Origin: Escherichia coli
GTDB lineage: Bacteria; Pseudomonadota; Gammaproteobacteria; Enterobacterales; Enterobacteriaceae
Length of the DNA: 64,000 nt
Assembly: GCF_050920415.1 (NCBI RefSeq)
Contig: NZ_CP169309.1
Reading direction: 5' to 3' (one strand)
Under the pieces are notes generated by a model. The model was given only the letters and a program-made list of their open reading frames with translations. It ran no database searches and had not been told where the DNA came from. A program made the translations under genes and the position numbers. The number at the start of each line of letters is the position of its first letter. Positions within the stretch are counted from its first letter, which is position 1. This document shows positions 3,538 through 17,920 of this stretch, piece after piece.

Positions 3538-4611
<1,074 letters not shown>

Positions 4612-12630: not shown

Positions 12631-14550
12631 TCATACCCGGCGCTTAAACTGCCCTGCATCAATGCCATGTTGCTTCATTTTCCGCCACAGCGTAGTGCGG
12701 CCGATTCCAAGTAAAGCCGACATTTCCTGAATGCGACCGCCTGTGACCTGGGCTGCGTTAATAATTGCCTCTTTTTCAACTTCCGCAAATGACAGACTGG
12801 TGGAAAGGCGAGTGGCGCTGACATCATCTGTCGCCTGCTCGGTAAACAGATGTTCAGGTAAATCACTGACGCGAATGCGCCCGTTATCACTACTCAGAGC
12901 AAGATTCTCGATGACGCTGTAAAGTTCAAAATCGTTGCCTGGCCATGCACAAGAAACCAGGCGAGCGAGGGCATCGTCATCAATTTTCAGACGCGTAGAG
13001 AAGCGTTTTTCAAGACTGCGTAATTTGTTATTCACCAGCGCCGGAATGCTGCCACGCCGCATACGCAGAGGCGGGATGGTAATTTCAAATGCATGCAGCG
13101 CGTAATACAGCTGGCGACTAAAGCGATTTTGTTCCACCAGCATTGCCAGGTCCGCGGTCGTTGTGGCAATCACTTTGACATCAATTGGTATTAAACGCCG
13201 CGCATCCAGTCGCGTGATAACACCCTGCTTGATAACCTGAAGCAAAGCAGACTGTAACTCCACCGCCAGATATTCAATCTTTTCAAGAAACAGCGTGCCG
13301 CCGTGCGCCAGTTCCAGTCGACTCAGACGACCATTTTCATTGTCCGTGCGATCGCCGCCAATAAATTCTTCCGCCAGCGCCGCATCACCATATAACTCAC
13401 AATTGACGGCGATATAAGGCCCCGCTGCACGCTCACTTTCATTATGAATTGCCTGACTTAGCAGTGCCTTGCCCACGCCCTCTTCTCCACAAAGCAGGAC
13501 AGGAAAGCTACTGCGCGCCGCCTGGCGACCAAAATGAATCAAGCGGCGGGTTTGCGGATCGTCCTGTGGCATATGAGCGAAAGTATGGCTGACTTTTCCT
13601 AATTGACTGGTCATTAACTGCCGCATCTGTTCCACAGGATGGAGCAACAAAATAAAGCTGGTTCCCTGCGTTTCTATTATCGGTTTAAGGGTTATCACCG
13701 CATCAATAAACTGGTGCTGACTTTCAAAGGTTGCTTCTACGTGTTTGAGCGGATGTGCCTGTTTTATTGCTTGTTGCAATACGGCGGGTAACGTTAAGAG
13801 TTCAGTGATCGCCCTTCCCTGACTTGCCGTCGCGTCAAGGCGCAAGGCCCGCGCCGCCTGGGCATTGATAAATTGCAAATTACCCTGCTCGTCCCAGCTA
13901 ATCACGCCATCATCCATACTTTCTAACAGGGCATTAAGTTGATTTAAATGACGGTTAGTTTCAGCGAGCAAACTGTCCGTCAGCAGTAAATTTCCGACCT
14001 CGCGTGCGATTGCCAACGTCAACGGCAAATCAGCTGCGGTAGTTTGCTCAACCGGACACGCCAGCGCTATTGTTCCCGTCAATCGGCCCTTGCTGTCAAA
14101 CAACGGTGTTGCACAAAAGGCCCAGTTCCAGAGTGCCTGTTTGAAATGTTGATCGGCCATCGTTTTCACGGCCTGACCAGAGATAGCCGCTAACGATAGC
14201 GCACAGGTACCAATAATTCCCTCTGCGCAATACGTGCCGTCATTGAATCCCAGGACACTAAGCTGGTGCAGCGTTTGTGGATCACCAAAACGACTAAGGA
14301 TGCAGGCGGTTTCATCAAGGATGAACAGTCCGCACGCCCGCGATTCCATATATTCCCAGGCATCTTCCAGCGCAGCCTGCCCGAGCGTCAGCATCGCTTT
14401 CTTACGCCGATAGATAGTAGCAAATGTCACGCCCTGGGCCTGGTGCGGTACGCTCCATGTCTCCCGTTTCATCAGTTTATTGCATCGCTCCCAGGAGGCT
14501 GCAATTAAGGGAGATATGCCCCGTTCATCGTTGTTAAAAGCGCCACTCAT
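12631..14550 (-). CDS. dhaR: Sigma-54-type transcriptional activator of the dha operon, DhaR
   Basis: ORF 12631..14631; start trimmed to the ATG at 14550 (MSGAFNNDERGISPL...), giving 639 aa; AAA+ motif (GEEGVGK) and C-terminal HTH. Confidence 0.88.
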   Translation of the reverse strand: MSGAFNNDERGISPLIAASWERCNKLMKRETWSVPHQAQGVTFATIYRRKKAMLTLGQAALEDAWEYMESRACGLFILDETACILSRFGDPQTLHQLSVLGFNDGTYCAEGIIGTCALSLAAISGQAVKTMADQHFKQALWNWAFCATPLFDSKGRLTGTIALACPVEQTTAADLPLTLAIAREVGNLLLTDSLLAETNRHLNQLNALLESMDDGVISWDEQGNLQFINAQAARALRLDATASQGRAITELLTLPAVLQQAIKQAHPLKHVEATFESQHQFIDAVITLKPIIETQGTSFILLLHPVEQMRQLMTSQLGKVSHTFAHMPQDDPQTRRLIHFGRQAARSSFPVLLCGEEGVGKALLSQAIHNESERAAGPYIAVNCELYGDAALAEEFIGGDRTDNENGRLSRLELAHGGTLFLEKIEYLAVELQSALLQVIKQGVITRLDARRLIPIDVKVIATTTADLAMLVEQNRFSRQLYYALHAFEITIPPLRMRRGSIPALVNNKLRSLEKRFSTRLKIDDDALARLVSCAWPGNDFELYSVIENLALSSDNGRIRVSDLPEHLFTEQATDDVSATRLSTSLSFAEVEKEAIINAAQVTGGRIQEMSALLGIGRTTLWRKMKQHGIDAGQFKRRV

Positions 14551-14615
14551 ATCCCGCATCCTTTGTGACAAAAGGTGTTCCGGCTCGCAATTTTTAGTAT
14601 TAAAACGCGTAAAAG

Positions 14616-14660
14616 TTTCAATATGGAACATTCATTAAAACATATGTTTCACCATGAAAC
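14616..14660. promoter_or_regulatory. Inverted-repeat candidate operator motifs in the divergent dhaR-dhaK intergenic region
   Basis: Perfect palindrome aaacatatgttt (14638-14649) overlapping gtttca-N3-tgaaac (14646-14660), plus related gtttca-ata-tggaac (14616-14630); role assigned by position only. Confidence 0.35.
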
Positions 14661-14777
14661 ATAATTTGGGCTAATTTTCTTTTCCCTTACCTGATGCACA
14701 ATGGATTTATCGGCAGTCAGTGGTCGCCGTGTCGTTGAACATCATCCATGCCCTACCGTAATTGCTGGAGCAAGATA

Positions 14778-15848
14778 ATGAAAAAATTGATCAATGATGT
14801 GCAAGACGTTCTGGACGAACAACTGGCGGGTCTGGCGAAAGCACATTCATCGCTGACACTGCATCAGGATCCGGTGTATGTCACCCGAGCTGATGCCCCC
14901 GTTGCAGGAAAAGTCGCCCTGCTGTCGGGCGGCGGCAGCGGACACGAACCGATGCACTGCGGTTATATCGGTCAGGGGATGCTTTCGGGGGCCTGTCCGG
15001 GCGAAATATTCACCTCACCGACGCCCGATAAAATTTTTGAATGCGCCATGCAAGTTGATGGCGGCGAAGGTGTACTGCTGATTATCAAAAATTACACCGG
15101 CGATATTCTTAACTTTGAAACAGCAACAGAATTACTGCACGATAGCGGCGTAAAAGTGACCACCGTGGTCATTGATGACGACGTTGCAGTAAAAGACAGT
15201 CTTTATACCGCTGGGCGGCGCGGCGTTGCCAACACCGTATTAATCGAAAAACTCGTAGGCGCAGCGGCAGAACGTGGCGACTCGCTGGAGGCTTGTGCAC
15301 AACTGGGGCGTAAGTTGAACAATCAGGGCCATTCTATTGGTATCGCCCTCAATGCCTGTACCGTTCCTGCCGCGGGAAAACCTTCTTTTACGCTGGCAGA
15401 TAATGAGATGGAGTTTGGCGTCGGCATTCATGGTGAGCCGGGTATTGACCGCCGCCCCTTCTCCTCCCTTGACCAAACCGTCGATGAAATGTTCGACACC
15501 CTGCTGGAAAATGGCACATACCACCGCACGCTCCGCTTCTGGGATTATCGACAAGGTAGCTGGCAGGAAGAGACGCAAACTAAACAACCGCTTCAGTCTG
15601 GCGATCGAGTAATTGCACTCGTCAACAATCTTGGTGCAACTCCGCTTTCTGAACTGTATGGCGTCTATAACCGCCTGGCCACGCGTTGCCAGCAAGCGGG
15701 CTTGACTATCGAGCGCAATTTAATCGGCGCGTATTGTACCTCACTGGACATGACCGGTTTTTCCATCACCTTACTGAAAGTTGATGACGAAACGCTGGCG
15801 TTATGGGACGCCCCGGTCCACACCCCGGCGCTTAACTGGGGTAAATAA
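14778..15848 (+). CDS. dhaK: PTS-dependent dihydroxyacetone kinase, DHA-binding subunit DhaK
   Basis: ORF 14748..15848; start trimmed to MKKLINDVQDV... at 14778, giving 356 aa. Confidence 0.9.
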   Translation: MKKLINDVQDVLDEQLAGLAKAHSSLTLHQDPVYVTRADAPVAGKVALLSGGGSGHEPMHCGYIGQGMLSGACPGEIFTSPTPDKIFECAMQVDGGEGVLLIIKNYTGDILNFETATELLHDSGVKVTTVVIDDDVAVKDSLYTAGRRGVANTVLIEKLVGAAAERGDSLEACAQLGRKLNNQGHSIGIALNACTVPAAGKPSFTLADNEMEFGVGIHGEPGIDRRPFSSLDQTVDEMFDTLLENGTYHRTLRFWDYRQGSWQEETQTKQPLQSGDRVIALVNNLGATPLSELYGVYNRLATRCQQAGLTIERNLIGAYCTSLDMTGFSITLLKVDDETLALWDAPVHTPALNWGK

Positions 15849-15858
15849 GGAGATAACC

Positions 15859-16491
15859 ATGTCACTGAGCAGAACTCAAATTGTTAACTGGCTCACTCGC
15901 TGTGGAGAAATTTTCAGCAAAGAGAGCGAGTATCTTACCGGACTGGATCGCGAAATTGGCGACGCTGACCACGGGCTAAATATGAACCGTGGCTTTAGCA
16001 AGGTGGTAGAAAAACTCCCTGCTATCGCAGATAAAGATATCGGTTTCATTCTCAAGAATACCGGCATGACGCTGCTTTCCAGCGTCGGTGGTGCCAGTGG
16101 TCCGCTGTTCGGTACTTTCTTTATCCGCGCCGCACAGGCGACACAGGCACGGCAAAGCCTGACGCTGGAAGAACTGTATCAGATGTTCCGCGATGGTGTA
16201 GACGGCGTAATCAGCCGCGGGAAAGCCGAACCTGGCGATAAAACTATGTGTGATGTCTGGGTGCCGGTGGTGGAATCGTTACGTCAGTCCAGCGAGCAAA
16301 ATCTCTCTGTTCCGGTGGCGCTCGAAGCCGCCAGTAGCGTCGCTGAATCCGCTGCACAAAGTACGATTACGATGCAAGCCCGCAAAGGCCGCGCCAGTTA
16401 TCTCGGTGAACGCAGTATTGGTCACCAGGATCCCGGCGCGACCTCCGTGATGTTTATGATGCAAATGCTGGCGTTAGCCGCAAAAGAGTAA
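15859..16491 (+). CDS. dhaL: Dihydroxyacetone kinase ADP-binding subunit DhaL
   Basis: ORF 15781..16491; start trimmed to MSLSRTQIVNWL... at 15859 (RBS aggaga upstream), giving 210 aa. Confidence 0.9.
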   Translation: MSLSRTQIVNWLTRCGEIFSKESEYLTGLDREIGDADHGLNMNRGFSKVVEKLPAIADKDIGFILKNTGMTLLSSVGGASGPLFGTFFIRAAQATQARQSLTLEELYQMFRDGVDGVISRGKAEPGDKTMCDVWVPVVESLRQSSEQNLSVPVALEAASSVAESAAQSTITMQARKGRASYLGERSIGHQDPGATSVMFMMQMLALAAKE

Positions 16492-16501
16492 GGAAATGGT
16501 G

Positions 16502-17920
16502 ATGGTAAACCTGGTCATAGTTTCACATAGCGCCCGACTGGGAGAAGGTGTCGGTGAATTAGCCCGTCAGATGTTAATGAGTGATAGCTGTAAAATCGCC
16601 ATTGCCGCGGGAATTGACGATCCCCAAAATCCCATTGGTACCGATGCCGTCAAAGTGATGGAGGCCATCGAGTCCGTTGCCGATGCCGACCATGTGCTGG
16701 TGATGATGGATATGGGTAGCGCATTATTGAGTGCTGAAACTGCACTGGAGTTGCTGGCCCCCGAGATCGCCGCAAAAGTACGTTTGTGTGCGGCACCGTT
16801 AGTCGAAGGTACACTGGCAGCAACAGTCAGCGCGGCCTCGGGAGCAGATATCGACAAAGTTATCTATGACGCCATGCATGCGCTGGAAGCCAAACGTGAA
16901 CAACTGGGTTTACCGTCCTCCGACACCGAAATCGCTGACACATGTCCTCCGTACGATGAAGAAGCCCATTCTCTGGCCGTGGTCATTAAAAACCGTAACG
17001 GCCTTCATGTACGTCCGGCCTCCCGGCTGGTTTATACCTTATCGACATTTAATGCCGATATGTTGCTGGAGAAAAACGGTAAATGCGTCACGCCGGAGAG
17101 TATTAACCAGATCGCGCTACTACAAGTCCGCTATAACGATACGCTGCGCCTGATTGCGAAAGGGCCAGAAGCTGAAGAGGCGCTGGTTGCTTTCCGTCAG
17201 CTGGCTGAAGATAACTTTGGTGAAACGGAAGAAGTTGCTCCGCCTACTCAGCGGCCCATTCCGCCTGTTTCGGGTAAAGCCTTTTATTATCAACCAGTTT
17301 TATGTACGGTACAGGCAAAATCAACTCTGACCGTGGAAGAAGAACAAGAACGATTACGTCAGGCAATTGACTTCACGTTATTAGATCTGATGACGTTAAC
17401 AGCGAAAGCAGAAGCGAGCGGGCTTGACGATATTGCCGCAATCTTTTCTGGTCACCATACACTGTTAGATGATCCAGAACTGCTGGCGGCGGCAAACGAA
17501 TTTCTTCAGCATGAGCATTGCACAGCAGAATATGCCTGGCAGCACGTTCTTAAAGAACTAAGCCAGCAATACCAACAACTGGATGATGAATATTTACAGG
17601 CTCGCTATATCGATGTGGACGATCTTCTACATCGCACCCTAATCCACCTGACGCAAACGAAAGAAGAACTCCCGCAATTTAACTCGCCAACCATTTTACT
17701 GGCGGAGAACATTTATCCGTCTACGGTTCTGCAACTGGATCCGGCGGTTGTAAAAGGGATCTGCCTTAGCGCCGGAAGTCCGGTATCCCACAGCGCCCTA
17801 ATCGCCCACGAACTGGGGATTGGCTGGATTTGCCAGCAGGGTGAGAAACTGTATGCGATACAACCTGAAGAAACGTTAACGCTGGACGTTAAAACGCAAC
17901 GTTTCAGCCATCAGGGATAA
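16502..17920 (+). CDS. dhaM: Dihydroxyacetone kinase phosphotransferase subunit DhaM (EIIA-HPr-EI-like fusion)
   Basis: ORF 16496..17920; start at MVNLVIVSHSARLG..., about 472 aa. Confidence 0.88.
   Translation: MVNLVIVSHSARLGEGVGELARQMLMSDSCKIAIAAGIDDPQNPIGTDAVKVMEAIESVADADHVLVMMDMGSALLSAETALELLAPEIAAKVRLCAAPLVEGTLAATVSAASGADIDKVIYDAMHALEAKREQLGLPSSDTEIADTCPPYDEEAHSLAVVIKNRNGLHVRPASRLVYTLSTFNADMLLEKNGKCVTPESINQIALLQVRYNDTLRLIAKGPEAEEALVAFRQLAEDNFGETEEVAPPTQRPIPPVSGKAFYYQPVLCTVQAKSTLTVEEEQERLRQAIDFTLLDLMTLTAKAEASGLDDIAAIFSGHHTLLDDPELLAAANEFLQHEHCTAEYAWQHVLKELSQQYQQLDDEYLQARYIDVDDLLHRTLIHLTQTKEELPQFNSPTILLAENIYPSTVLQLDPAVVKGICLSAGSPVSHSALIAHELGIGWICQQGEKLYAIQPEETLTLDVKTQRFSHQG

Follow-up and report, generated by a model that had tools for sequence, protein, structure and literature searches.

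Two copies of a dyad-symmetric box, GTTYC-N5-GRAAC, lie 31 bp apart in the spacer between the divergent dhaR and dhaK genes of Escherichia coli. We propose, with a probability of about 85% that is drawn from sequence comparison, that they form a paired DhaR operator which would activate the sigma-70 promoter of dhaK and possibly autorepress dhaR. What is directly observed is the presence of the boxes, the distance between them, their conservation and the constant interval that separates them from a -10-like hexamer. A first-pass annotation of this DNA had put forward three motifs as plausible operator sites for DhaR or another regulator; comparative evidence favours a DhaR operator for two of them, and not for the third, a 12-bp palindrome.

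The dhaR-dhaK control region

The window, i.e. the whole stretch of 64,000 nucleotides analysed, was identical over positions 14400-14900 (100%) to record NZ_CP169399, and this region had matches in 5,383 of the 5,426 complete E. coli genomes; the window is E. coli chromosome. The annotation of the identical record (Table 1) bore out the earlier description of the region as a dhaR-dhaK divergent control region: the two genes are separated by a spacer of 227 bp (14551-14777), with the proposed motifs (14616-14660) inside it. The G+C content of the spacer is 39%, compared with 48% for the window. The corresponding spacer in K-12 (NC_000913.3) is 1250839-1251065; the spacer region of the window is 94-97% identical to that of K-12, and the half-sites of both boxes are identical. 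K-12 has the same genes, spacer and regulator as the window; the window strain differs from it by a rare A at 14640 and by CCA, not CTA, in the spacer of box 2.

Table 1. Position of the genes and sequence elements in the window
Feature	Position	Strand	Basis
dhaR	12631..14550	-	annotation of identical record NZ_CP169399
Element CCGGCTCGCAATTTTT, conserved, flanking box 1	14580..14595	.	about 20-35 nt from box 1, towards dhaR
Box 1, the distal box, nearer to dhaR than to dhaK: AAGTTTCAATATGGAACAT	14613..14631, core 14615-14629	.	exact GTTYC-N5-GRAAC match
Perfect 12-bp palindrome AAACATATGTTT	14638-14649	.	rare SNP (A at 14640) next to the left arm of box 2
Box 2, proximal to dhaK promoter: TATGTTTCA-CCA-TGAAACATA	14643..14663, core 14646-14660	.	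perfect 9-N3-9 inverted repeat
T-tract ATTTTCTTTT, conserved, at -35 position of inferred dhaK promoter	14674..14683	+	cross-genus conservation
Inferred -10 hexamer CACAAT of DhaR-dependent dhaK promoter	14697..14702	+	conserved distance from proximal box
dhaKLM operon, regulated target	14778..17920	+	annotation of identical record
dhaK	14778-15848	+	annotation of identical record; Dak1 domain by Pfam
dhaL	15859-16491	+	annotation of identical record
dhaM	16502-17920	+	annotation of identical record

The region is variable within the species. The exact spacer sequence of the window was found in only 18-19 of the 5,426 complete genomes, and the 500-bp region was 90-95% identical in 1,860 records, which is an unusually high divergence for E. 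coli core DNA. Comparison of the dhaR-proximal third of the spacer (14551-14615) with loci L005, L006 and L008 (2923-3000) revealed two strongly diverged haplotypes within Escherichia. Twelve spacer matches among the complete E. coli genomes were plasmid-borne, and some genomes had up to three copies. In Escherichia albertii NBRC 107761, the DhaR match was limited to residues 528-638 and the locus contained no dhaK; the dha locus of this strain appears truncated or deleted.

Two copies of one box

An inverted repeat, GTTTCA-N3-TGAAAC, overlapping the 12-bp palindrome had been noted previously; it was found, as the core of a perfect 9-N3-9 repeat (TATGTTTCA/TGAAACATA) that we call box 2. The related sequence upstream, previously read as a pair of half-sites, is also present but is a full second box equivalent to the first (box 1, GTTTCA-N3-TGGAAC); its right arm is imperfect, and it begins 1 nt before the start of the region first delimited. 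The symmetry of box 1 is 5-N5-5 with a Y/R wobble and that of box 2 is 9-N3-9; both are dyad-symmetric and suited to a dimeric HTH_8 reader. In a repeat search the two boxes form a 17-nt direct repeat with a spacing of 31 bp, their centres being at 14622 and 14653.

The 64-kb window contains two exact matches to GTTYC-N5-GRAAC (0.32 expected), and these are the two boxes of the spacer. When one mismatch was allowed, eight matches were found, the two boxes included, compared with 6.8 expected, which is the chance rate. Perfect inverted repeats with 8-bp arms and spacers of 0-10 nt are also common (53 in the window, three of them with a 3-nt spacer). None of the single motifs goes beyond chance; the repetition of one box does.

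Across Escherichia the arms of box 2 are kept while its spacer reads CCA, CTA, TTG or TTA. Similarly, the half-sites of box 1 are kept in other Escherichia clades while its spacer and flanks have diverged (GTTTCAATATGGAAC, compared with GTTCCGTTATGGAAC). The sequence at the 31-bp register to the left of box 1, GCTCGCAATTTTTAG, was read by eye and is not a third box. A GTTCC half-site at 14577-14581, picked up by the repeat search, was discarded as part of a box, as it is not conserved outside Escherichia.

The 12-bp palindrome

The perfect 12-bp palindrome was present as reported, but its status as an element did not stand. In the window, 13 perfect palindromes of this length were observed for about 15.6 expected (64000 x 4^-6). 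In K-12 MG1655 the sequence at this position is AAGCATATGTTT, in which the symmetry is broken. Of the 5,426 E. coli genomes, 19 contain a 30-mer that spans the A at 14640 and not the second SNP, compared with 4,308 that have the G allele of K-12; other Escherichia lineages carry AAGAATATGTTT or AAGCATACGTTT, and the palindrome was not found in any other Escherichia lineage or genus examined. The palindrome is very probably an incidental and strain-specific by-product of the left arm of box 2 and a rare SNP, with no separate role.

The box pair is conserved in other genera

Orthologous loci were collected by scanning a genome collection with DhaR and from the contigs of DhaR homologues. They came from four Escherichia lineages, Pluralibacter, two Pantoea species, an enterobacterium of the MGYG collection, Citrobacter koseri, Klebsiella, Serratia and Rahnella; the Serratia upstream region was taken from a longer contig (L039), and four loci (L009, L011-L013) lacked the relevant upstream region. 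Gene order differs among these bacteria. In E. coli and Rahnella, dhaKLM is divergent from dhaR, and in Klebsiella, Pluralibacter and Pantoea it is divergent from gldA(dhaD)-dhaR, with a spacer of about 535-600 bp. In C. koseri a gene for a single-chain Dak1-Dak2 kinase replaces dhaKLM, and in Serratia there is one gldA-dhaKLM operon, convergent with dhaR.

We found 33 boxes in 10 genomes, always paired, 31-33 bp from centre to centre and placed before dha operons: they precede dhaK, the gldA(dhaD)-dhaR operon or the gene for the ATP-dependent Dak1-Dak2 kinase. Every genus examined had an orthologue of the distal box, and where the spacer is long, a further box pair faces gldA-dhaR. Sequences between and around the boxes are not conserved across genera. 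The consensus of the 33 boxes is yGTTyCAtnATGrAACr, with GTTYC-N5-GRAAC as its core. The invariant core columns are partly circular, because the degenerate pattern was tuned with the orthologues already in view, using the loci described here; independent evidence comes only from positions that were not used in finding the sites, where CA/TG inside the spacer was found in 70% and flanking Y/R in 85%. A search for perfect 5-N(0-12)-5 dyads common to eight spacers returned as top dyads mostly registers of the same box (ATGTT-N9, TTCCA-N3, GTTCC-N5 and GTTTC-N5), each in only two or three regions and tied with two unrelated dyads; owing to the T/C wobble in the box, a search for perfect dyads is too strict.

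In the 144 kb of orthologous loci, all exact matches but one were in dha control regions. The sole exception is a lone C. koseri box, GTTTCATACTGAAAC (locus L037, 7355-7369), with dhaR on one side and a DUF1889 gene on the other; it may mark an additional DhaR target. Two other elements were observed in the non-E. coli loci and are absent from E. coli. A palindrome-like sequence, TTGCGATC(C/G)CGATC, lies between the two box pairs of the dhaK-gldA spacer in Klebsiella, Citrobacter, Pluralibacter and Pantoea (L037, L038 at about 3570-3600, L007, L010 and L016), and a CCTCCGACGGAG dyad lies just upstream of the dhaK ribosome-binding site in the same loci.

An open-ended scan of a metagenome collection was made with the paired pattern and a 16-nt gap. 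Among the 80 matches listed, 47 paired-box loci had dhaK, dhaL, dhaM, dhaR or gldA homologues directly downstream; the remainder seem for the most part to be tandem repeats, CRISPR-like repeats or matches by chance. Among the dha loci, four are distant (L068, L080, L100 and L041). They have the order dhaR-[boxes]-glpF-dhaK-dhaL-glpK, with identities of 51-53% for DhaK and 25-31% for the N-domain of DhaR, and consensus TTGACA-16-TA(C/G)AAT promoters follow their boxes after 16-17 nt. In L068 the first of the two boxes extends into the 3' end of dhaR. Three low-GC metagenomic contigs (L076, L098 and L108) carry near-identical paired boxes away from dha genes, GTTCCAGAATGGAAC-N16-GTTTCAAAATGAAAC, which may be the site of a different regulator with a similar half-site.

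Position of the boxes relative to the promoters

A scan of the spacer for a consensus sigma-70 promoter and for terminators gave no match, which is the expected result for an activator-dependent promoter, and the dhaK promoter was therefore inferred from conservation. In 11 of 12 enterobacterial sequences a -10-like hexamer follows the proximal box at a distance of exactly 36 nt, and in the twelfth at 37 nt; E. coli has CACAAT, Serratia TATAGT and the other genera CAGAAT, GAGAAT or AAGAAT. Klebsiella, Citrobacter, Pluralibacter, Pantoea and the MGYG enterobacterium have a counterpart of the T-tract at the presumed -35 position: an ATTTTYTTTT tract equally far from the proximal box. As box 2 ends 36 nt upstream of CACAAT, the box centres would be at about -56 and -87 of the dhaKLM promoter, if transcription starts about 7 nt after the hexamer. 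The dhaK promoter predicted in an RpoD SELEX study differs from this one (TTGAAC-16-CGTAAT, closer to the ATG; PMC3946193).

The same study predicts a dhaR promoter, TTGCGA-17-CATAAG, at the flanking element CCGGCTCGCAATTTTT (PMC3946193). Klebsiella, C. koseri and Serratia keep this element, as GGCTCGCA(T)TTT, about as far from the distal box, and Pluralibacter and Pantoea have a degenerate form of it; in Klebsiella and C. koseri it stands in the middle of the spacer (about 595 bp). It may be part of the leftward promoter of dhaR (with TTGCGA as -35, or TAAAAT as -10 in K-12) or the site of another factor.

DhaR and the sigma factor

Pfam assigns to DhaR the domains GAF, PAS, Sigma54_activat, AAA_lid_14 and HTH_8, the last at residues 588-627. 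The N-terminal 318 amino acids match the structures PDB 4LRX, 4LRY and 4LRZ (Shi et al., 2014). The recognition helix of HTH_8, GIGRTTLWRK, is invariant in eight genera, whereas 41% of DhaR columns are invariant overall; in DhaR of the distant loci the helix reads G(I/V)(S/G)RTTVWR(K/R). The GAFTGA motif is absent from DhaR of all eight genera, and no sigma-54 -24/-12 promoter was found in the spacer, where the best match has three mismatches and lacks the GC. Both results agree with the literature, which describes DhaR as a protein without the sigma-54 motif that works at a sigma-70 promoter, with DhaL as coactivator and DhaK as corepressor.

Published occupancy data

In the papers covered by a full-text search, which included the literal box sequences, no DhaR footprint was described. 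ChIP-exo peaks for four other tagged proteins have been published at this promoter (Gao et al., 2021; PMC8464067, supplement file 5): YgaV at 1250946-1250978, YdcN at 1250169-1250198, YdhB at 1250169-1250200 and YfiE at 1250168-1250203. The peak lists of PMC8464067 appear to mix two K-12 coordinate versions. After conversion, the four peaks, of 30-35 bp, fall at spacer positions 88-120 (14638-14670 of the window) and are centred on box 2. For YdcN, YdhB and YfiE this mapping uses an inferred offset of +777 between K-12 versions, which was adopted because these rows name dhaK or dhaR as nearest and because the start positions then coincide exactly (1250169 + 777 = 1250946). The offset rests in part on what we take to be the gene coordinates of an older K-12 version.

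The proteins with this common peak are structurally unrelated (Xre-type YdcN, LysR-type YdhB and YfiE, and YgaV). Its recurrence with four unrelated proteins suggests that the signal is independent of the tagged factor and stems from a complex stably resident there, for which DhaR is the simplest candidate; the peaks look like one such complex or a hyper-ChIPable spot and not like four specific interactions. As other tagged proteins were used, they indicate occupancy and not the occupant.

A YgfI (DhfA) ChIP-exo peak has been reported upstream of dhaK at 1250068-1250108. By the same conversion it corresponds to 14731-14771, and the predicted motif GATGCACAATGGATTC to 14693-14708; neither overlaps the boxes, and YgfI was rejected as the protein that binds them. 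It was observed that the predicted motif lies outside the YgfI peak and coincides with the conserved -10-like CACAAT; the 'DhfA motif' may be promoter sequence.

Alternative readings

Two readings question the boxes themselves. Their symmetry could be a functionless accident of a spacer richer in A+T than the window, as the window has many single palindromes and inverted repeats of this size. This is extremely improbable: the genera share the box, its arrangement in pairs 31-33 bp apart and the interval of 36 nt to the -10 hexamer, but not the surrounding sequence, and the paired pattern stands beside dha genes in 47 of the 80 metagenomic loci among the matches listed. Alternatively, the palindrome AAACATATGTTT could itself be the functional operator overlapping box 2, since it is perfect, lies inside the control region and has halves, AAACAT and ATGTTT, which resemble outward-facing flanks of DhaR half-sites. 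We consider this very improbable in view of the few E. coli genomes that have it, the K-12 allele that breaks it in most others, its loss in all other Escherichia lineages and genera examined, and the chance rate of same-length palindromes in the window.

Two further readings accept the boxes and change the protein or the mechanism. That they are the upstream activating sequences of a classical sigma-54 enhancer system is suggested by the Sigma54_activat and HTH_8 domains of DhaR and by an 8-N3-8 geometry resembling NtrC-type sites; it has almost no likelihood, given a DhaR family devoid of GAFTGA in eight genera, a spacer devoid of a -24/-12 element, the published sigma-70 dependence, and the distant loci in which consensus sigma-70 -35 and -10 sequences directly follow the boxes. 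The boxes could also be operators of a regulator other than DhaR, such as a LysR-type protein (YgfI/DhfA, YneJ/PtrR, YdhB or YfiE), NtrC or Mlc. Box 2 formally contains a LysR-type T-N11-A dyad (TTTCACCATGAAA), the peaks of the LysR-type proteins YdhB and YfiE are centred on it, YgfI and YneJ are reported to bind upstream of dhaK, a genomic-SELEX peak of NtrC lies within the spacer, and one iModulon groups DhaR-regulated with Mlc-regulated genes. Nevertheless, four structurally unrelated proteins give the same peak, as would be expected of a signal that does not depend on the factor, and the YgfI peak and motif are off the boxes. The consensus matches for sigma-54, TyrR, NtrC, CRP and Mlc-like sites in the spacer were all poor (3-5 mismatches at best for NtrC, TyrR, CRP and Mlc-like sites), and these sites were rejected. 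The boxes follow dhaR across genera and gene orders, very distant DhaR proteins included. Another regulator is therefore unlikely, if less so than the other three readings, and DhaR is preferred.

Discussion

From these comparisons we infer that DhaR occupies the bases of the boxes. A DhaR dimer would contact each box through its two C-terminal HTH_8 domains, which are of the Fis type, and the pair, three helical turns apart, would keep a DhaR tetramer, or an AAA+ oligomer of higher order, bound to the same face of the helix. From these sites, near -56 and -87, DhaR would activate the dhaKLM promoter, a weak one of the sigma-70 class, once DhaL::ADP has taken the place of DhaK on its sensor domain. 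Box 1 faces dhaR and probably overlaps or abuts its promoter, where bound DhaR would limit dhaR transcription; autorepression of dhaR has reportedly been described.

DhaR is classed in the TyrR family, and TyrR is the other sigma-70-acting member of the enhancer-binding-protein-like group in E. coli. TyrR boxes are dyads read by the C-terminal HTH of a PAS-AAA+ protein; they occur as adjacent pairs at sigma-70 promoters and serve activation as well as repression. The DhaR boxes are likewise paired dyads, and would resemble those of TyrR in their position upstream of, or overlapping, sigma-70 promoters. The two differ in geometry, the TyrR box TGTAAA-N6-TTTACA being 6-N6-6 and the core of the DhaR box 5-N5-5 (the best match to the TyrR consensus in the spacer has four mismatches in 12), and in input, which is amino acids for TyrR and protein-protein contact with DhaK or DhaL for DhaR. 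NtrC sites, TGCACCA-N3-TGGTGCA, have the arm-N3-arm layout of the extended box 2 (ATGTTTCA-N3-TGAAACAT), as expected for a Fis-type HTH_8 dimer, and in NtrC-type enhancers, as proposed for the DhaR boxes, tandem sites hold an oligomer. The NtrC half-site is different (five mismatches in the best spacer match), and the DhaR system, unlike that of NtrC, has no sigma-54 promoter, no GAFTGA, and boxes predicted at about -56 and -87 in place of -100 to -140.

The divergent dhaK and dhaD-dhaR operons of Klebsiella and Citrobacter have the same box, pairing, spacing and 36-nt distance to a -10-like hexamer. Their spacer, of about 595 bp, contains two box pairs, one for each divergent operon, whereas E. 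coli lacks an adjacent gldA/dhaD and has a single box pair, in a 227-bp spacer that is common to dhaK and dhaR.

The control by DhaR of dhaKLM, the dihydroxyacetone kinase genes, has already been characterised in K-12 (Bächler et al., 2005, EMBO J 24:283), and to find an operator in this spacer is no surprise; for these reasons the site has little discovery value in itself. Two things could be new, at a likelihood that we put somewhat short of even: a rigid, deeply conserved grammar of DhaR promoters, and the reading of the four ChIP-exo peaks as a DhaR complex on box 2. The grammar may consist of two GTTYC-N5-GRAAC boxes three turns apart, a distance of 36-39 nt to the -10 hexamer and, in enterobacteria, a T-tract in the place of a -35. 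For annotation, a spurious palindrome is replaced by a two-box unit. If the YdcN, YdhB, YfiE and YgaV peaks are the footprint of DhaR, regulatory assignments based on them would be false; several high-throughput ChIP-exo assignments at the dhaK promoter probably report one resident complex and not the tagged factors. If true, the grammar could make it possible to test how an AAA+ protein of the enhancer-binding type that lacks GAFTGA activates sigma-70 RNA polymerase, and the consensus and spacing rule is usable for annotating DhaR regulons in Enterobacterales and beyond.
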